Part shown: piece by piece, positions 52-64,000 of the stretch
Layout of the letters: the number at the start of each line of letters is the position of its first letter
Position numbering within the stretch: the first letter of the stretch is position 1
Origin: Candidatus Avelusimicrobium facis
GTDB taxonomy: Bacteria > Elusimicrobiota > Elusimicrobia > Elusimicrobiales > Elusimicrobiaceae
NCBI GenBank assembly: GCA_934636855.1
Contig: CAKUBH010000005.1
Location: forward strand, 46,370 to 110,369
Length of the DNA stretch: 64,000 bases
Direction of reading: 5' to 3'
Notes under the pieces: generated by a model
Seen by the model: the letters and a program-made list of their open reading frames with translations, nothing else
Told to the model about the DNA's origin: nothing
Database searches by the model: none
Translations under genes and position numbers: made by a program

Positions 52-1062
52 TTGTACATGACACCCCAACTCAACGAACTTCTCAAGCAAACTTCCCGCA
101 GCCTTTATTTAAGTGCGCGGCAGCTGCCGCCGGCCGCGCGGGACACCTTTGCCGTGGCGTATTTGCTCTGCCGCTACGCAGACAGCATAGCCGACACGGC
201 CTTGCTTCCGCCGACGCGGCGGCTGTACTGGATTCAGCGTTTTGCGCAGATGATTACCCACCCGCAAGCACAAGAGCAAACGCAGCTGGTGCAGGAAATT
301 TCGGGCGCGTCAGAAAATAAATACGAAGAGCAACTGCTTAAAAATTTCCCGTTGTGTCTGCAGGCGTTTGAAAAATTATTGCCGTGGCAAAAGCAAATCA
401 CATTAGACGTGGTGCACGCCGTGTGCGAAGGGATGAAAACGGATTTGCAGGTTTTTCCGCCGGAAACCGCAGGAGAAATACGGGCCTTGCCCTCGGCCGA
501 TGAGCTGGAGAAATATTGCCGGTTAATGGGCGGGGCGCCAGGCGTATTTTGGAGCAAACTCATTTCGCACACGGTGCCCGTCAAAATAAAAGAAACGGAT
601 TTTTGGACCTGGGGACAAGCCATCGGGGACGCCTTGCAAATCGTCAATATCTTGCGGGACTTACCGCGCGATTTACGCATCGGCCGCTGCTACTTCCCCG
701 AAGAAGAACTCCAAAAAAACGGATTAACCGCAACGGACTTGCTGCATCCCGAAAACAGCCCGCGCTTTGAACCCGTCAAGCAATATTGGATCCGTTGGGG
801 CCGCCAAAAATTGCAGTACGCCAAACTCTTTTATGGCGCCCTGCCCAAAACACAACCGGCCCATCGTGCCGCCGTGGCGTGGCCGGCGCTGTGGGCGGCG
901 GACACATTAAATAAAATTGCGGTAGAGCCGGCTTTGTTGGACCCGGGCCGCCGCGTAAAAATCCCGCGCGCGCGCATTTACGGCACCTTCTGTTTGACGC
1001 CTCTTATTTTGCTGAGCAACACGCTGTTCAATACGTGGCTTCAAAGCAAGTTAGACAAATAA
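52..1062 (+). CDS. squalene/phytoene synthase family protein (HpnC/HpnD/CrtB-like)
   Basis: 336-aa ORF with the trans-isoprenyl diphosphate synthase head-to-head fold signature: RSFYLSARxLP, AYLLCRYADSIAD (DxxxD) and GDALQIVNILRDLPRD Asp-rich motifs. Confidence 0.7.
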   Translation: MYMTPQLNELLKQTSRSLYLSARQLPPAARDTFAVAYLLCRYADSIADTALLPPTRRLYWIQRFAQMITHPQAQEQTQLVQEISGASENKYEEQLLKNFPLCLQAFEKLLPWQKQITLDVVHAVCEGMKTDLQVFPPETAGEIRALPSADELEKYCRLMGGAPGVFWSKLISHTVPVKIKETDFWTWGQAIGDALQIVNILRDLPRDLRIGRCYFPEEELQKNGLTATDLLHPENSPRFEPVKQYWIRWGRQKLQYAKLFYGALPKTQPAHRAAVAWPALWAADTLNKIAVEPALLDPGRRVKIPRARIYGTFCLTPLILLSNTLFNTWLQSKLDK

Positions 1063-1589
1063 CCTAAAAAAACCGCGTAATATTTCATGCCGTTTCCGCT
1101 GTGCCGTAAAACACCGCCCATGCTCAGGCAGGCTTTTTCCGCTGCTTTATTTTCCTCGTAAGCATAGCAAAGAGTGTAGGGGGCTCCCGTTGCCTGGTCC
1201 AGCCAAATTTGCCAAGCACTCACAAGGGCACCGCCCCGGCTGTTGGTGCAATACACATCCCTCGGCGCGGACAAAACGCAAAAGGTGTGGGCGGTGGGTT
1301 TCCAATTTTTTGCTTCATCGGGAAACCCGGTCCCGGGCAAGGAAATATCCAAGTCGCTAAAGGCATTGGTATATTCCCCGTTGGCCATAAAGTAGCGCTC
1401 TTCGGCATCCTTGATAGACCGGGTTAAAATTTGCAATTCCGCCAAGTGGGTCCGCGTTACCGCCGCCTGATATTGTGGCAGCGCCACCGCGGCAAGGATG
1501 CCGATAATGAGCACGACCACCAACAATTCAATCAGCGTAAAGCCGCCGAAGCAGATACTTGGTTTTTTGCCGTTATAAAATAAGGTCAT
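1041..1589 (-). CDS. type IV pilin-like protein, paralog 1 (prepilin-type N-terminal cleavage/methylation domain)
   Basis: N-terminus MTLFYNGKKPSICFGG|FTLIELLVVVLIIGILAAVALPQY is a canonical class III signal/prepilin motif. The ORF extends to 1652, but the Met at 1589 immediately precedes the leader and the upstream bases are the conserved regulatory element. Confidence 0.6.
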   Translation of the reverse strand: MTLFYNGKKPSICFGGFTLIELLVVVLIIGILAAVALPQYQAAVTRTHLAELQILTRSIKDAEERYFMANGEYTNAFSDLDISLPGTGFPDEAKNWKPTAHTFCVLSAPRDVYCTNSRGGALVSAWQIWLDQATGAPYTLCYAYEENKAAEKACLSMGGVLRHSGNGMKYYAVFLGYLSNLL

Positions 1590-1610
1590 CCTGGAAAGTT
1601 TTAGTCCAGG

Positions 1611-1716
1611 ATCTAAATTTCGCGTATACGCAAAATTTAGCAAAAAAAACATGAGGCAAGTGTTTTACATGGCGGAGCCAACTTCTACAACGACAAAAAG
1701 AAAACTGAAAGAGCCG
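1611..1716 (-). promoter_or_regulatory. conserved pilin-leader element copy 1 (palindrome CTAAATTTCGCGTATACGCAAAATTTAG plus A8/T8 tract plus conserved 60-bp box)
   Basis: ~85% identical over ~95 bp to 6973-7090 and 15543-15660. All three copies lie immediately 5' of a pilin-like gene on the same strand. Confidence 0.6.
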
Positions 1717-6046: not shown

Positions 6047-6428
6047 CATGAAGAAAACTATTTTTTACCACGATACCGACTGCGGCAATGTGGTCTATTA
6101 CGCCAACTATTTAAAATATTTTGAAGAGGCGCGCACCTTGTTTATGGCACAGAAGGGATTCTCCGTGCCGGCGCTGATTCAACGCGGGCTGTATTTTGTG
6201 GTGGCGCGGCAAGAGGTGGAATACAAATATTCCGTGCGCTATGCCGACGAGATAGACGTCAGCACCCGGGTGTTGGAAATTTCAGATATCAAAATTGTAT
6301 TTGAAAATATCATCACCAACCAAAACGGCCGCCTCTGCACCAAAGGCAAAACCACCCTGGTCTGTGTGGACCGCACGGGCATGCCCACCCCCATGGGCGC
6401 CGACGTAAAAGCGGCGATGATGAAGTAG
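6036..6428 (+). CDS. acyl-CoA thioesterase, hotdog fold (YbgC/4HBT family)
   Basis: [23 protein letters not shown] matches the 4HBT/YbgC active-site region; 130 aa. Confidence 0.75.
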
Positions 6429-6440
6429 TACTATTTTAAA

Positions 6441-6466
6441 GCCCCCGCTTCATGGCGGGGGCGCTT
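6441..6466. terminator. bidirectional rho-independent terminator
   Basis: GCCCCCGC-ttcatg-GCGGGGGC hairpin between convergent genes. Confidence 0.5.
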
Positions 6467-6959
6467 AATAGCCCAAACTTTGGCATAATCCGGCAATTTT
6501 GCTCTCACATTCCGTTTGGCCCGGATTTTCCGAATAGTCCAGCCAAATAATATATTTAGAGGGTGCCTGTTCATTTAGTTCCCCCGTGTTCATCCTTTTC
6601 CCCTTACCGGGTATCCCATGCGTGTCCCACAATACCAAGTTGGGGCTGGGTCCGGCAAACATGTCAACGACAAATTTATCACACCACAACATATAACGGC
6701 CTCCGCCATCTAAACATCCCGGATAATTTATGTCCAGCTCCCGCCAATATTGCGGATATTCCCCATTGGCTATATAGTACACTTCCATGGCGTCTTTTAG
6801 TGATTTTCCTGCCATTTGGAGTTGGACGAAACGGCTTTTTGCTGCTGTTTTTGTGTACTGTGGCAGCGCCACGGCAGATAATATGCCGACGATGAGCACA
6901 ACAACTAATAACTCAATCAGCGTAAAGCCGCTTAAACGGCCCGTAAAACGGTTTTTCAT
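6465..6959 (-). CDS. type IV pilin-like protein, paralog 2
   Basis: MKNRFTGRLSG|FTLIELLVVVLIVGILSAVALPQY. SD AAGGAA 8 nt upstream of the ATG at 6959; the ORF nominally extends to 6998. Confidence 0.7.
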   Translation of the reverse strand: MKNRFTGRLSGFTLIELLVVVLIVGILSAVALPQYTKTAAKSRFVQLQMAGKSLKDAMEVYYIANGEYPQYWRELDINYPGCLDGGGRYMLWCDKFVVDMFAGPSPNLVLWDTHGIPGKGKRMNTGELNEQAPSKYIIWLDYSENPGQTECESKIAGLCQSLGY

Positions 6960-6972
6960 AGTGGAGTTCCTT

Positions 6973-7090
6973 TTTTGATAAATTTTGCCTATACGCAAAA
7001 TTTATCAAAAAAAAAACATTAGGCAAGTGTTTTAAAAAGGGGTGCCAACTTCTACGACGACAAAACAAAAAATAAACGGCAAAAGCTGTT
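6973..7090 (-). promoter_or_regulatory. conserved pilin-leader element copy 2 (perfect palindrome GATAAATTTTGC-CTATAC-GCAAAATTTATC plus A10 tract plus conserved box)
   Basis: Perfect 12-bp-arm inverted repeat centred ~6990, 20-45 nt upstream of the start codon. Remaining ~75 bp conserved with the other two copies. Confidence 0.6.
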
Positions 7091-7386
7091 CATCAAACAA
7101 GTCATCCCCGAAGGTCTCAGTCGGGGATCTTCGTCTTATTATGTCAAATAAGGAAAAAGCCTCTCTTATATAAATATCAGCGAAAGATTCCCGACTACAT
7201 TCCTCGGGAATGACACTTTATTTTGATGAAGGGGAATAAGGCTGAGATTCCCGATTACAATCCTCGGCCATGGCGGCATGAATGGAATGCGGCCCCTGTG
7301 TAACTAGCGGCCGATTTGCAAAATCTCACATATTTTATTAAATATACGCCGCCAAGCCTTAATAATAAAGTAAAATATATTTACCT

Positions 7387-14905: not shown

Positions 14906-15526
14906 TTAAAAGTTCAGCTGATACCGGGGATGACCATTCTCTGCCGTCCCTGTGCGGGGGCCGAAAGAAGCGCACACCCGGTCCCCCACCTGTGTGCCTG
15001 CATAGCATGACTTGCGTTGCGGACAAAAATCAATGACCACAGTGCCTAAACTTGCATATATGCACGAGGAGCCTTCGGGCAACCTGAAATATCCAATCGG
15101 CGTTCCCGTATATTCCAACCCCTGCTCATACGCTTGTTTGGAAGTATAAGACATGGCTATGTCCAATTCTTCCAAATCCGTGGAATAAGTACCATTGGCT
15201 AAAAAACTCCTTTCCCGCGCATCCAATATGCTGCGTAAAACGGGCAAGGCTTTGCCTACGCGGGCGCGTTCCACCGCCACCCGGTATTGCGGCAGCGCCA
15301 CAGCGGAGAGAATGCCAATGATAAGGACCACGACCAACAATTCAATGAGGGTAAAGCCGCCGCGCCGTTCATCGCATGAGGTCATCCTGGAGTGTCTGGC
15401 GACCCGCAGGGTTCCAGGATCTGCCGTGTTCCTCTTGTTTGTAACGACAGACCCTGGACTACGACCTTCCAGGGGGACAACGTTGAGGAATAACCGGCCC
15501 AAACGGCCTGTAAAACGGTTTTTCAT
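14906..15526 (-). CDS. type IV pilin-like protein, paralog 3 (leader region carries an in-frame ~130-bp hairpin-rich insertion)
   Basis: The 5' end (MKNRFTGRL, SD AAGGAA) is near-identical to paralog 2. The reading frame then runs through a 47-codon insert before GG|FTLIELLVVVLIIGILSAVALPQY. An alternative start MTSCDERRGG|FTL lies at ~15390. Confidence 0.6.
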   Translation of the reverse strand: MKNRFTGRLGRLFLNVVPLEGRSPGSVVTNKRNTADPGTLRVARHSRMTSCDERRGGFTLIELLVVVLIIGILSAVALPQYRVAVERARVGKALPVLRSILDARERSFLANGTYSTDLEELDIAMSYTSKQAYEQGLEYTGTPIGYFRLPEGSSCIYASLGTVVIDFCPQRKSCYAGTQVGDRVCASFGPRTGTAENGHPRYQLNF

Positions 15527-15542
15527 GAGAGGGTTCCTTTTT

Positions 15543-15668
15543 TGCTAAATTTTGCCTATACGCAAAATTTACCAAAAAAAAAACATTGTGCAAGTGTTTT
15601 AAATTACGGAGCCCACTTCTATGACGGCAAAACAAAAATAAACGGCAAAAACAATAAGGCTGAGGCTG
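15543..15668 (-). promoter_or_regulatory. conserved pilin-leader element copy 3 (palindrome TAAATTTTGC-CTATAC-GCAAAATTTA plus A10 plus conserved box)
   Basis: Aligned with copies at 1611-1716 and 6973-7090. Confidence 0.6.
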
Positions 15669-15813
15669 TTATAAAAATTAAGGTCATGCTGAGAGGTTTT
15701 AGTTCAGGATGACCGTATTGGATAACTACAAGGGCCTTTCGCTGTTGCGTCGTTATGCCGTTCGCCGTTTGCACAGCGGCCATTGGAGCGTTTATAAAAA
15801 ATAAAATTTCATA

Positions 15814-36871: not shown

Positions 36872-36927
36872 AATTCCTCCATTAAAGATATTAAATCATA
36901 AATAAAAAAGAAAAGCAACTATTTTTT

Positions 36928-36943
36928 GTTTTCACGTGAAAAC
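36928..36943. other. parS-like site GTTTTCACGTGAAAAC
   Basis: Perfect 16-bp palindrome with the TTTCACGTGAAA core identical to parS; 57 bp upstream of the parA start. Confidence 0.6.
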
Positions 36944-36962
36944 ACGCTCTGTTGTAAAAAAT

Positions 36963-36978
36963 GTTTTCACGTGAAAAC
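36963..36978. other. parS-like site GTTTTCACGTGAAAAC
   Basis: Second identical copy 35 bp from the first. Confidence 0.6.
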
Positions 36979-37057
36979 AAGACAGGCCCTGTATCAACAA
37001 GGCCTGTGAATTGCTGTGGATAACTTATTAACAGGGTCCGTTTTCCCTATACAATTT

Positions 37058-38032: not shown

Positions 38033-38043
38033 ATTTCTTCCTT

Positions 38044-38059
38044 GTTTTCACGTGAAAAC
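38044..38059. other. parS-like site GTTTTCACGTGAAAAC
   Basis: Third identical copy, between lepB and the upstream glycosyltransferase. Confidence 0.6.
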
Positions 38060-39162
38060 TATTTAATTTCTGTATAAATTTTAAGATAAATTTGTTCCGG
38101 GGCCGGATAAAACCGCTCCATTCTCGCCCGCGCTGCGCGGCCCATTTTTTGGCGCAGCGCCGTATTTTCCGCCAACTCCGTCATCAAGACGGCCAGCAGA
38201 ACGGGGTCTTTCCCGGGAAACACAAAGCCATTTTCCCCGTGGCAGACCACCCGGGGCATATCGCCAACTTTACTAACAATAGCCGGTAAACCGCAAGCGG
38301 CAGCTTCCAGCAAGGCCAGCGGCAAACTCTCTATATAAGAGGGCAAAACAAAAATATCCGCTGCACAAAGATATTTGTAAACATTGCTTACTTCTCCTGC
38401 AAAAACAACCGCCTTTTCCAGCCCCCCTGCTTGCACTTGGCGGTGTAAATTTTCTTGCTCAGGCCCATCCCCCACCAGCAAAAGTTTACTCTGCGGATGT
38501 TTGGCATAAAATAATTGAAATGCCTGTAGCAAAAGGGCGTGGTTTTTCTCTTTAGACAGCCGGGCAACACAAGCAAAAACAACCTCTTGCGCCGAAAACC
38601 CCAGCTCCGCCCGCGCTGCCGTGCGCAAAGCATTATCCGGGCGAAACCGCTGCAAATCTACGCCGTTGGCCACCCGGCGTACCTTCTCCCGGGCGTATTT
38701 TTGCTTTTGCAGCAAAAAGTCCGCCGTAGATTGGGACTCGGCACAGCTCATATCGTCCCCATCCTTCAAAGCGCGGTCCAACAGGCGTAAAACATAGCCT
38801 TTACGGGATAGGTCATAGTGCGGCGTGGTGAGGAGCGTAAACGGGGTACGCCGCTTGGCCAAGCGGCAAAATTGAATAGCCCGGTAGAGCCCGGCATGTA
38901 CAACATCCGGGGAAAAGGCTTGTATCTGCGCCACCAGCCGCGCCAAAGCGCCCGCCGTTTCCAAAGGGCGGTACTTGCCGCGCAAGTCCAAAGACTCCAC
39001 CGATAAGCCCGCCTCTTGCAGCTGCCGGCCCAACGGCCCCAAGGGCCGCAGAGAAAGCACGTTTACTTCGTGCCCTGCGTGAAACGCCGCTTGGGCCAAG
39101 GTAAAAAAAGCCCTTTCGGCCCCGCCGACTTCGGTGCTGGTGCAAACATACAAAATCTTCAT
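38059..39162 (-). CDS. glycosyltransferase family 4 (GT-B, GT1 superfamily)
   Basis: N-terminal MKILYVCTSTEVGGAERAFF; C-terminal EGFGLPxxEA-like motif (ESLPLALLEAAACGLPAI). Confidence 0.75.
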   Translation of the reverse strand: MKILYVCTSTEVGGAERAFFTLAQAAFHAGHEVNVLSLRPLGPLGRQLQEAGLSVESLDLRGKYRPLETAGALARLVAQIQAFSPDVVHAGLYRAIQFCRLAKRRTPFTLLTTPHYDLSRKGYVLRLLDRALKDGDDMSCAESQSTADFLLQKQKYAREKVRRVANGVDLQRFRPDNALRTAARAELGFSAQEVVFACVARLSKEKNHALLLQAFQLFYAKHPQSKLLLVGDGPEQENLHRQVQAGGLEKAVVFAGEVSNVYKYLCAADIFVLPSYIESLPLALLEAAACGLPAIVSKVGDMPRVVCHGENGFVFPGKDPVLLAVLMTELAENTALRQKMGRAARARMERFYPAPEQIYLKIYTEIK

Positions 39163-61427: not shown

Positions 61428-61553
61428 AGGGCTTTTCCTCCAGGGGAAAAACAACACAGCCCCTGTTTAAGAGGACACCCCGTTTTTAGTCCGCCTTTCT
61501 TTTTCCGCGTTTTAGCGGTTTGAGCACAAGGCGGATTTTTATATGCAAATAAA

Positions 61554-61585
61554 ATTCCCGGAATAGTTGGTTCCGGGAATTTTTG
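61554..61585. terminator. bidirectional hairpin terminator
   Basis: ATTCCCGGAA-tagttgg-TTCCGGGAAT followed by TTTTTG; lies between the convergent Sel1 and glyA genes. Confidence 0.5.
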
Positions 61586-61619
61586 CGCGCTGCGCGTTTT
61601 GTTTTGAAAAGAGAGCCCT

Positions 61620-62867
61620 CTATCCCAGCTGCGGATAGAGCGGGAAGTCCTCCAGGAATTTTTCCACCTCTTTGGCTTCCGCCGCCAAATAGGCCTCGTC
61701 GGCGTGGTGGGTAATAGCGCGGTCTATCAGCTCCGCCACTTTTTCCATATCCGCTTCTTTCATCCCGCGGGTCGTTACCGCCGGGGTGCCAATGCGCAAC
61801 CCGCTGGTAACAAACGGCTTTTCCGGGTCAAAGGGAATGGTGTTTTTGTTGGCGGTGATACCGGCTTTATCCAAGGCGGCCTCCGCCACTTTGCCCGTCA
61901 GATTTTTGGAGCGTAAATCCAAACACATGACATGGCAGTCCGTCCCACCTGCCACCAGCCGGTAGCCGCGTTTTTTTAACGCTTCGGCCAAGGCCTTGGC
62001 ATTGAGTACCACTTGGTGCTGGTAGGCTTTAAACTGCGGTGTCAGCGCCTCGCCAAAGCAAACGGCCTTGGCGGCGATCACGTGCATCAGCGGTCCGCCC
62101 TGCACGCCGGGAAAGACGGCCGAATTAATCGCTTTAGCCAAATTTTCTTTGCATAAAATCAGCCCGCCGCGCGGCCCGCGCAAGGTCTTGTGCGTGGTGG
62201 TGGTTACCACATCGGCATACGGCACCGGATTGGGGTATTCTCCGGCGGCGATGAGCCCGGCATAATGTGCCACGTCGCAGGCCAAGTAGGCCCCGCAGCT
62301 GTCGGCAATTTCGCGCAGGCGTTTCCAATCAAACACGCGGGAATAATTGGAGGCTCCGGCAAAAATCAGTTTGGGTTTGTGCTGCCGGGCCAACGCGGCG
62401 GCTTCGTCGTAGTCAATTTCTTCGGTGTCTTTGCGCACGTTCATGGCCACAATGTTAAAATATTTGCCGGAAAAATTCATCGGGTGCCCGTGGGTCAGGT
62501 GCCCGCCGTGCGAAAGGTTGAGCCCCAGCACGGTGTCGCCGGGTTTGACCAAGGCCACATACACGGCCATGTTGGCCTGCGCGCCGGAGTGCGGCTGCAC
62601 ATTGGCATGCTCGGCCCCAAAGATTTTTTTGGCGCGTTCTATGGCCAAGTTTTCCGCCACGTCCACGTATTCACACCCGCCGTAATAACGTTTGGCCGGA
62701 TACCCTTCGGCGTATTTGTTGGTCAGCACAGAGCCTTGTGCCTGCATCACCGCCAGCGAGGTAAAATTTTCCGACGCGATGAGCTCTAATTTATTGCGTT
62801 GGCGTTGCAGCTCCGCCGATACGGCAGCAAAAACTTCGGGGTCTTGGGCTTGCAGTTGGGGATACAT
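61620..62867 (-). CDS. glyA: serine hydroxymethyltransferase
   Basis: PLP-lysine motif [14 protein letters not shown]; 415 aa. Confidence 0.95.
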
Positions 62868-63037
62868 AAAAACGCTCCTTTGAAACGATTTAAAAAGTAC
62901 CGCAAAAAATTTTGCGCGGTTTTCTTATATTTTACTATGAAAAACGCTTCAATTTTCATATAATTTATTAAATAAGAAATAAAATAAGCAAAAACGCCGT
63001 TTGTCGGCGTAAAAATTCCCGCAGAGGTGTAGAAAAA

Positions 63038-64000
63038 ATGGCAAAACTCACGCAAAAAGACTTCCTCAAAGGCACCATCAAACACATGGACATGAAAAAA
63101 TACAATGTGGTCCCCATGGTAGAAGCCTTTGAAAACATGGCATATACTTCCCGCGACCTGGCCCGCGCCAGCAAAATCTACCATCAAATGCTGTCCGACA
63201 AAAACTGCTCCGTTATTTTGTGCATTGCCGGCTCTTTGATTTCCGCCGGCCTGAAGAAGATTATTGTGGACATGATCCAAAACAAGATGGTGGACGCGAT
63301 TGTTTCCAACGGCGCCAACATCGTAGACCAAGACTTTTTTGAAGCATTGGGCTATAAACACTATTTGGGCGACCAGCACCACGCCGACGATAACCTGCTG
63401 CGCGACCTGCATATTGACCGCATTTACGATACCTACATCAACGAAGACGAATTGAAAGAGTGCGATGAAACCATCCACAAAATTTGCGAATATTTGGAGC
63501 CCCGCCCCTATTCTTCCCGCGAATTCATTTGGGAAATGGGCAAATGGCTGGAAAAGAACAAAAAAGGCAAAGACAGCGTTGTGTACAATGCCTACAAATA
63601 CGGCGTACCCATATTTGTGCCGGCGTTTTCGGACTGCTCTGCCGGCTTTGGCTTTGTGGCGCACCAAACCCAACATCCCGAAGCCCATGTATCTATTGAC
63701 AGCGCCAAGGACTTTTTGGAATTGACCAAAATCAAAATCAAAGCCAAAGAAACCGGTTTGATGATGTGGTCCGGCGGCGTGCCGAAGAACTTTGCGCAAG
63801 ACACCGTGGTGGCGGCGGAAATTTTGGGCGCGGAAATCCCGATGCACAAATATGCCGTGCAAATCACCGTGGCCGACGAGCGCGACGGCGCCTTGTCCGG
63901 CTCTACGCTCAAAGAGGCCTCCAGCTGGGGCAAAGTATCCACCGCCTTGGAACAAATGGTCTATGGCGAATGCACCACGCTCATCCCGCTGATCATCGGC
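63038..64000 (+). CDS. deoxyhypusine synthase-like protein (DS family), 3'-truncated by the window edge
   Basis: SD GAGGTG 8 nt upstream of the ATG. GSLISAGLKKIIVDMIQNKMVDAIVSNGANI aligns with the human DHS segment [26 protein letters not shown]. Not in the ORF track because it has no stop within the window. Confidence 0.65.
   Translation, partial: MAKLTQKDFLKGTIKHMDMKKYNVVPMVEAFENMAYTSRDLARASKIYHQMLSDKNCSVILCIAGSLISAGLKKIIVDMIQNKMVDAIVSNGANIVDQDFFEALGYKHYLGDQHHADDNLLRDLHIDRIYDTYINEDELKECDETIHKICEYLEPRPYSSREFIWEMGKWLEKNKKGKDSVVYNAYKYGVPIFVPAFSDCSAGFGFVAHQTQHPEAHVSIDSAKDFLELTKIKIKAKETGLMMWSGGVPKNFAQDTVVAAEILGAEIPMHKYAVQITVADERDGALSGSTLKEASSWGKVSTALEQMVYGECTTLIPLIIG

Follow-up and report, generated by a model that had tools for sequence, protein, structure and literature searches.

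A conserved promoter-like leader with a T-run spacer and a palindrome at the predicted start site precedes an expanded subfamily of type IV pilin-like genes in Avelusimicrobium

Why should three pilin-like genes that lie scattered among housekeeping genes be preceded by nearly the same stretch of non-coding DNA? The question is raised by 64,000 nucleotides (nt) of Candidatus Avelusimicrobium facis (GenBank assembly GCA_934636855.1, contig CAKUBH010000005.1, positions 46,370 to 110,369 of the forward strand), referred to here, at its full length, as the window. An earlier note, made from the sequence alone, had pointed to a shared leader upstream of all three genes and had proposed that it is a cis-regulatory module, either the operator of a dedicated regulator, a T tract able to phase-vary, a structured 5´ untranslated region (UTR), or some combination of these. 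Comparison with other assemblies and with metagenome contigs leads us to a more specific answer: the block is probably the common core promoter and 5´ leader of an expanded type IV pilin-like subfamily in Avelusimicrobium.

The block itself was found where the note had placed it, ~105 nt long, on the minus strand and nearly identical before all three dispersed genes (Table 1). The window was searched with a palindrome pattern, a box A/B pattern, a repeat finder and, in six frames, for the prepilin motif. Both patterns matched just these three sites (0 expected in shuffles), the repeat finder gave pairwise identities of 76-92% for the three leaders, and the six-frame search returned three GFTLIELL pilin-like open reading frames (ORFs), 3/3 with the block. 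All three genes are above the cut-offs for PF07963 and TIGR02532 and encode the G/FTLIE motif with a hydrophobic helix, while their matches to pilins in the PDB are limited to the N-terminal ~60 residues. Not every detail of the original description holds for every copy. The palindrome is perfect in copy 2, with an outer G.G mismatch in copy 3 and a T.G mismatch in copy 1; the T10 tract is present in copies 2 and 3 and is T8 in copy 1; and the Shine-Dalgarno sequence (SD) and ATG that follow the palindrome in copies 2 and 3 are replaced in copy 1 by a hairpin resembling repetitive extragenic palindromic (REP) elements. With copy 2 transcribed divergently from pheS and copy 3 placed behind the rplT terminator, these two copies need a promoter of their own.

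Table 1. Leader copies, pilin-like genes and REP-like hairpins in the window. Copy 2 serves as the reference; -35, -10 and start assignments are predictions.
Feature	Positions	Strand	Remarks
Leader copy 2, box A to start codon	6957..7065	-	Identical in 3/4 other assemblies spanning the leader at this locus
Copy 2 box A, TTTTGTCGTCGTAGAAGTTGGC	7044..7065	-	About -73 to -52; 90-100% per column in 25 paralogs
Copy 2 A/T-rich UP-like box, TTTTTAAAA	7030..7038	-	Just 5´ of -35; putative function
Copy 2 -35-like hexamer, TTGCCT	7021..7026	-	
Copy 2 T10 tract	7007..7016	-	Within the 16-nt spacer 7020-7005
Copy 2 extended -10, TGaTAAATT	6999..7007	-	Hexamer TAAATT 7004-6999
Copy 2 30-bp palindrome, GATAAATTTTGC-GTATAG-GCAAAATTTATC	6977..7006	-	Centre is the predicted start, 6992
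Copy 2 predicted transcription start	6992	-	A seven nt after the -10
Copy 2 SD and start codon	6957..6972	-	AAGGA 6972-6968; ATG 6959-6957
Pilin-like gene 2	6465..6959	-	164 amino acids, MKNRFTGRLS/GFTLIELL
Leader copy 1, degenerate variant	1585..1698	-	Same sequence in L046
Copy 1 box A	1698-1677	-	
Copy 1 -35-like hexamer, TTGCCT	1659-1654	-	
Copy 1 T8 tract	1649-1642	-	Spacer 14 nt
Copy 1 extended -10, TGcTAAATT	1642-1634	-	
Copy 1 palindrome	1640-1613	-	
REP-like hairpin at copy 1	1585-1613	+	In place of the SD; supplies ATG 1589-1587
Pilin-like gene 1	1041..1589	-	182 amino acids
Leader copy 3	15524..15632	-	
Copy 3 box A	15632-15611	-	
Copy 3 -35-like hexamer, TTGCAC	15593-15588	-	
Copy 3 T10 tract	15583-15574	-	Spacer 16 nt
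Copy 3 extended -10, TGgTAAATT	15574-15566	-	
Copy 3 palindrome	15573-15544	-	Centre is the predicted start, 15559
Copy 3 SD	15539-15535	-	
Copy 3 start codon, ATG	15526-15524	-	
Pilin-like gene 3	14906..15526	-	206 amino acids
REP-like hairpin, GTCATCCCCGAAGGTCTCAGTCGGGGATC	7101..7129	+	Just upstream of leader 2
REP-like hairpin	7186-7214	-	
REP-like hairpin	15381-15421	+	
Imperfect REP-like hairpin	7246-7268		
Imperfect REP-like hairpin	15450-15478	-	
Imperfect REP-like hairpin	15682-15713		

How far this association extends was followed in other genomes (L numbers are our labels for loci and contigs). A scan of one genome per species with the pattern AAAACACTTGC-N10-26-TAAATTTTGCG returned 28 loci, all from CAVHDF01, the metagenome-assembled genome (MAG) of a sister lineage, together with 8 chance hits. 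With an nhmmer profile the CAVHDF01 copies rose to 33-34 (at least 33); 18 of them lie <=300 nt from a contig end, as expected for a multi-copy repeat. In the first copy set of 36, comprising those of the window and CAVHDF01, the right palindrome arm AAATTTA was not forced by the pattern. A metagenome scan with a palindrome-only pattern supplied ~45 further sense copies from several lineages; these were selected by their arm sequences, so arm invariance among them carries no information. Spacer counts below are based on ~75 copies in total. Housekeeping proteins encoded in the window match, identically or nearly so, proteins recorded under Candidatus Avelusimicrobium facis (Elusimicrobiaceae). 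CAVHDF01 is titled 'Eggerthellaceae bacterium', though it is 94% identical to the Avelusimicrobium window over 2.4 kb and is rich in Elusimicrobial pilin genes (contigs L001-L036), and the label is probably wrong.

In the first set, 36/36 nhmmer hits precede pilin-like ORFs, which supports a selected and shared cis-regulatory module tied to one class of pilin-like gene. More widely, all copies with sufficient downstream sequence, metagenome contigs included, are followed by a co-oriented GFTLIELL pilin-like ORF whose leader peptide reads MKNRSTGRLG/GFTLIELL or a lineage variant of it, and in Elusimicrobial contigs the palindrome was found upstream of pilin-like genes only. The idea of a marker for the pilin regulon as a whole has to be narrowed, however, to one subfamily, since in the CAVHDF01 loci four pilin-like genes of another class (MKKGFTLIELL) lack the block. 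Such a leader is also missing from those pilin genes of A. fimicolum and A. stercoris that were examined. Members of the second class, with the short leader peptide MKKGFTLIELL or MNKGFTLLELL and without the conserved leader, were seen in L008 (about 4076, plus strand, with a nearby gene on the opposite strand), L024 and L034, and are presumably core pilins or pseudopilins. The block marks one expanded pilin-like subfamily in part of the genus and is not a generic repeat. An interspersed repeat, either a miniature inverted-repeat transposable element (MITE) or a REP element, that came to lie near pilin genes by chance and without regulatory meaning would also be multi-copy, would also break assemblies, and could be flanked, as the block is, by genuine REP-like hairpins. 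All copies, however, share a single orientation, keep a constant distance to a pilin-like ORF and are in frame with it. None was found away from such ORFs, either in the window or in the MAG loci, which amount to 253 kb, and synonymous sites are less conserved than the block. We regard such an origin as scarcely credible.

The degree of conservation was measured over the 300 pairs that 25 paralogs form. Identity is 87% for the 50 nt preceding the T tract and 90% for the palindrome, against 53% for synonymous third positions at identical codons of the adjacent N-terminal helix, which bears out the earlier observation that conservation is higher in the leader than in the coding sequence. Because non-coding identity of 87-90% stands against synonymous identity of 53%, the leader itself is under selection, and recent duplication alone cannot account for its conservation. 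Translation from the module is likewise supported: the frame from its ATG to GFTLIELL is open in 50/50 readable copies (from the window, other assemblies, CAVHDF01 and metagenome contigs), and therefore the SD and ATG of the module are in use.

The region shared by all lineages runs only from about -46 to +17 of the predicted start and consists of the A/T-rich box, TTGNNN, a T-rich spacer, TGnTAAATT and the palindrome. The A/T-rich, UP-like box is kept throughout as TTTAAAA, TTTTAAAAG or TTTTTAAGAG. The -35-like hexamer is TTGCMY in A. facis (TTGCCT, TTGCAC) and TTGACG, TTGCAT, TTGACT or TTGTAT in other lineages. TAAATT is invariant in all ~75 copies, including A. alvi copies that have no palindrome, and the TGn at -15/-14 is present in all but L094 (TC), the base n being free (A, C or G). 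In the window, the exact extended -10 motif occurs at the three leaders only. TTGNNN and TAAATT stand 16 nt apart in 65 of the ~75 copies, and this length is reached by four spacer configurations: TTGCMY-AATG-T10-Gn, TTGCAT-TG-T12-GA, TTGACG-CG-T12-GA and TTGTAT-TCG-T12-C. That a slippage-prone run was kept at one length while the sequence drifted argues for a role of the T run as -35/-10 spacer. We also considered compensation between T-tract length and flanking bases, but do not rely on it, as the four configurations can be derived by substitutions alone. The earlier note could match the element to no known motif. This still holds with respect to Rfam, where no family corresponds to it, but the block does fit a promoter of the sigma-70 type (TGnTAAATT, TTGNNN, 16-nt spacer). 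From this architecture we infer promoter activity and a start site seven nt after the -10, giving in A. facis a UTR of 33 nt that is A-rich and unstructured in folding. A search within box A and box B for alternative promoters gave no hexamer pair with usable spacing.

Other lineages show which parts of the arrangement can be lost. In a promoter scan the versions from A. alvi, which read TTGACG-16-TAAATT and include the TG, are scored as promoter-like, and their -35 hexamers, like that of L153, match the consensus at 5/6 positions. In 2/3 A. alvi genes the -35, T12 and TGaTAAATT are kept and the palindrome is lost. In the third, the sole ATG coincides with the predicted +1, inside the loop of the palindrome and precisely 7 nt past TAAATT, with no SD, an arrangement that suggests a leaderless mRNA. 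These genes are found on L044 (1-2100), where three pilin genes with a shared promoter core stand in tandem, two of them starting with GTG after a different, palindrome-less UTR. Box A was found in the A. facis group only and is absent in the A. alvi and human-gut lineages; it is possibly an activator site. We also noted, on the opposite strand, a mirrored promoter-like T6-GA-TAAATT that has no -35. Separately, contig L041 (Logan SRR11236246) begins 3 nt upstream of the predicted start of copy 2, which may reflect an assembly break caused by the repeat or, should the run be RNA, the end of a transcript.

The position of the T tract, exactly within the spacer of the core promoter and, as a homopolymer of T8-T13 (>=8 nt), long enough to slip, raises the possibility that it serves chiefly for reversible slipped-strand change of the -35/-10 spacing, by which single paralogs would be turned on and off. 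Length changes within the core (-35 to +17) are found only in the T tract and in the A tract 3´ of the palindrome, spacers of 13-18 nt occur in about 10 of 75 copies, and window copy 1 is itself a 14-nt variant. The comparison between assemblies that the earlier note had called for was possible at the copy 2 locus, which four other assemblies span; the look-ups for copies 1 and 3 led to one place each, probably the window's own assembly. Three of the four have T10, and the fourth, L042, has T13 and a 17-nt spacer through a G-to-T change plus one extra T. A second pair of orthologs, L114 (T12) and L111 (T11), also differs. In the human-gut lineage T12 is modal, with T11 and T9 variants, one pair among them having identical flanks. 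Against a switching role, tract length is strongly modal, with T10 not only in three of those four assemblies but also in 34/36 paralogs of two genomes (the window and CAVHDF01), the exceptions being T9 in L016 and the T8 of copy 1; by comparison, the tracts of Bordetella fim promoters range from 10 to 15 and from 13 to 18 among strains (PMC1891110). In addition, the deviant contigs have a coverage of just 1.5-2.5x, at which homopolymer errors are possible. By these comparisons the length of the T tract is under stabilising selection, though slippage happens. Phase variation, as proposed from the T tract by the earlier note, found weak support or none and may be called possible at most; as the tract's chief purpose it appears quite unlikely. 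A long promoter homopolymer need not mean phase variation.

The palindrome spans -14 to +16 of the predicted start, with its dyad overlapping both the -10 and the start. In copy 2 its arms are 12 bp, reaching 18 bp per arm with T6/A6, and the DNA folds at -16.1 kcal/mol (z = -7.8). For copy 1, alignment gives 12-nt arms and a 6-nt loop in register with the others, whereas its own self-complementarity reaches further inward, to 14-nt arms without a loop. Folded as DNA, this copy forms a stem of 12 bp and a loop of 4 nt. Across 34 distinct sequences the palindrome together with the T/A tracts makes an 18-bp stem in which 95.9% of cells are paired; one pair covaries (A-T 16, C-G 6, G-C 4, mismatch 8), one U-A pair has become U-G in 10/34, and the loop-closing pair is broken in 8. 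The register of the palindrome to the -10 is fixed, whereas the start codon follows at 33 nt in A. facis, at 0 nt in A. alvi and at ~75 nt in L153. The palindrome is thereby linked to the promoter, which favours an operator-like role, and the element is most simply read as a candidate operator for a dimeric regulator.

The same palindrome could instead act as RNA. Transcription would then start near box A or box B, and T10-palindrome-A6 would form an AU-rich RNA hairpin by the SD that controls translation or mRNA stability of all paralogs. The 111-nt fold (-32.7 kcal/mol, z = -6.2), in which a 23-bp stem pairs U's with the GG of the SD, is consistent with such a hairpin, as are the pair that covaries through three Watson-Crick types, the change from U-A to U-G, which keeps pairing in the sense strand only and occurs in ten distinct sequences, and the invariance of the right-arm AAATTTA in the 36 first-set copies. 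However, no promoter-like element common to the lineages lies upstream of the T tract, box A being confined to the A. facis group, and the distance from hairpin to SD and ATG varies while the register to TAAATT is constant. Moreover, an SD is lacking in the lineage whose ATG lies in the loop, and two A. alvi paralogs dropped the hairpin and kept T12 and TGaTAAATT. Rfam 15 at gathering thresholds gave only tRNA in the window, and a permissive search gave generic hairpin hits far below gathering scores (31 bits at best, where 88 would be needed). The covariation, too, could stem from the correction of quasi-palindromes by template switching, an established mutational mechanism. With the predicted start lying in the loop of the palindrome, and the palindrome in fixed register to the -10 and not to the start codon, the structured 5´ UTR of the earlier note becomes the less likely option, and we consider control by this hairpin unlikely.

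There are also signs of recombination. The copy 2 ortholog in GCA_036730845.1 (L168, compared with window 6100-7360) is 98-99% identical from codon ~30 on. Its first 30 codons carry clustered, mostly synonymous differences, its -35 and its box A are of another variant, and the DNA further upstream is unrelated. This pattern marks a recombination breakpoint near codon 30. Leader site pairs (-35 type versus outer palindrome pair) are found in all four gametes, copy-2-like 5´ modules stand before three different MAG genes, and a leader and pilin cassette in CAVHDF01 (L014 1-875), beside DNA 94% identical to window 61547-64000, is absent at window 61430-61547. These observations could also be taken to mean that the conserved 5´ block (REP hairpins, leader, signal peptide and N-terminal helix) is kept mainly as a homology tract, with the palindrome maybe a hairpin recombination site, and that gene conversion or swapping of promoters and 5´ parts diversifies the surface. 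Adjacent synonymous sites, however, are near saturation between paralogs (53%), and since they were not homogenised, conversion alone cannot explain the 87-90% identity of the non-coding part. Nor is there any sign of inversion or cassette shuffling in the 50/50 readable copies, which share one orientation and an intact frame. Recombination as the main reason for conservation is therefore improbable; it could go together with the promoter reading but would not take its place. Judging from these patterns, the 5´ module is exchanged between paralogs, too seldom to homogenise synonymous sites.

The REP-like hairpins that accompany the block have a REP/MITE-like form, GTCAT-stem6-loop-stem6-ATC, with stems that vary between copies and stay complementary. 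In the 64 kb they occur at the three pilin loci only, either 5´ of the leader or 3´ of it, ahead of the part that encodes the mature protein. Among the 50 readable copies, 19 have 39-72 extra codons inserted as paired REP-like hairpins, always in multiples of three and stop-free, and their leader peptides reach 49-82 residues (copy 3 at 15358-15526, L003, L017, L019, L021, L024, L036, L049, L053, L073 and others). That of gene 3 has 56 residues with two translated hairpins inside. The leader peptide, predicted to be cleaved off, apparently tolerates translated palindromic elements. One pilin copy, at about 1631 onward of L103, has lost the hydrophobic helix (MKNRFTGRLGGFTLPQYRV...) through an internal deletion and is probably a pseudogene. 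Elsewhere in the window, a perfect 18-bp palindrome, TGTTTTCACGTGAAAACA, occurs in three copies (36927-36997 and 38043-38078), two of them 35 bp apart and one 1.1 kb off; this looks like the operator of an unrelated regulator.

Under the promoter reading, each dispersed paralog would carry its own copy of the module and thus be an independent transcription unit, with box A, the UP-like box, TTGCMY, a 16-nt mostly-T10 spacer, TGnTAAATT, start, UTR, SD AAGGA and ATG following one another in gene orientation. Transcription would begin 7 nt after the -10, at the centre of the 30-bp palindrome. The T run would act as promoter spacer, held at the length that gives 16 nt, with occasional slippage producing off-optimum spacers such as the 14 nt of window copy 1. 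The palindrome would be the operator for one dimeric regulator that switches the whole set of paralogs together. Several points count against this proposal. The window copies are below the threshold of the consensus scan and the A. facis -35 matches the consensus at 3/6 positions, a comparison made with the sigma-70 consensus, which may not be Elusimicrobiota's own. The strong conservation of box A in the A. facis group is not explained by a promoter model. The invariance of the arms in metagenome copies was imposed by the search pattern. The covarying pair (A-T, C-G, G-C) behaves as a transcribed hairpin predicts, the right-arm A-to-G change keeps pairing only as U.G in sense RNA, and the T tract, if transcribed, could pair with AAAAAAGG and partly cover the SD. 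Going one step further, the start-centred palindrome with its T/A tracts might be a regulon-wide switch, as the operator of a master regulator or as a supercoiling-sensitive cruciform, that gates dozens of paralogs while T slippage and 5´-module swapping tune single genes. This we hold to be speculative and doubtful; if true, such combinatorial surface variation would be new to type IV pilin-like proteins and to the Elusimicrobiota as a phylum.

The Elusimicrobiaceae of the gut, which are uncultured, carry dozens of pilin-like genes. The cassette of -35, T-run spacer, TGnTAAATT and start-site palindrome provides a precise and testable mark of the subfamily and a search key with which the putative regulon can be counted and followed in metagenomes. 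The palindrome cassette could serve as bait for the candidate regulator, and the start site is a concrete prediction for metatranscriptomes. Translated palindromic elements in a cleaved leader peptide and the swapping of 5´ modules offer leads on how this surface family diversified.

Several known kinds of element were compared with the block and set aside. For sigma-28 (TAAA-N15-GCCGATAA), inspection by eye gave a spacing of 21 nt, and a base of the GATAA is variable. The Bacteroidetes-type -7 motif TAnnTTTG does not fit, as the leader has TAAATTTTG, with one T too many, and the palindrome-less A. alvi copies are without TTTG. An intrinsic or bidirectional terminator was rejected on account of the A/T-rich stem, which on both strands is preceded by the T run and followed by the A run, and an invertible promoter between inverted REP hairpins on account of the single orientation and intact frame of all readable copies. 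With the sigma-54/PilR pilA promoters of Pseudomonas and Myxococcus the block shares its association with type IV pilin genes and the strings TTGGCA and TTGCA. A sigma-54 promoter was rejected, since the GG-to-GC spacing is 22 nt and not 12, 10 nt too far in comparison with TGGCAC-N5-TTGC, and since Elusimicrobium minutum, the cultured member of this family, is reported to lack sigma-54 (PMC3162934).

A literature search on pilin gene leaders in Elusimicrobia or Avelusimicrobium found nothing, and the device is one that was not reported before, although it is conceptually familiar. Extended -10 (TGn) sigma-70 promoters tolerate a weak -35, and classical repressor operators overlap the start site. 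The leader is similar to such promoters with an operator in having TG one base 5´ of TAnnnT, a spacer of 16-17 nt and a dyad from -14 to +16, but differs in its arms, which are longer than usual (12-18 bp) and consist almost wholly of A and T. The in-frame hairpin inserts in the leader-peptide region resemble the in-frame palindromic elements of Rickettsia. As with Neisseria pilE/pilS, the genes have a conserved 5´ part, a variable 3´ part and recombination between pilin paralogs; unlike there, each copy comes with a putative promoter, an SD and a start codon of its own, with no silent cassettes or single expression locus. A G4-forming element was not seen either, though no search was aimed at one. 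In the vlp genes of Mycoplasma hyorhinis, as reportedly described by Citti and Wise, a poly(A) tract lies in the -35/-10 spacer. The vlp genes, like the vsp genes of M. bovis, form multigene surface families in which promoter, 5´ UTR and signal peptide are highly conserved and the mature regions divergent. PMC11868660 refers to the Vlp system. The vlp system shares with ours the promoter cassette of a surface-protein family in which a homopolymer sets promoter geometry; the vlp genes, however, are clustered and individually phase-variable, with tract lengths that differ at one time, whereas the pilin-like genes are dispersed among housekeeping genes and have near-uniform tracts. The closest analogue is found in the Bordetella fim promoters, where fim2, fim3, fimX and fimN share a conserved 'fim box' and a homopolymeric C-stretch that sets promoter geometry and transcription (PMC1891110). 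In both cases, dispersed subunit paralogs have the same promoter element with an upstream box and a homopolymer. The Bordetella tract, however, lies between the BvgA activator site and the -10, is widely polymorphic and serves four genes for chaperone-usher fimbriae, while in Avelusimicrobium a poly-T between a -35-like hexamer and an extended -10, almost fixed at the length that gives 16 nt, is combined with a palindrome centred on the predicted start site before dozens of genes for type IV pilin-like proteins.

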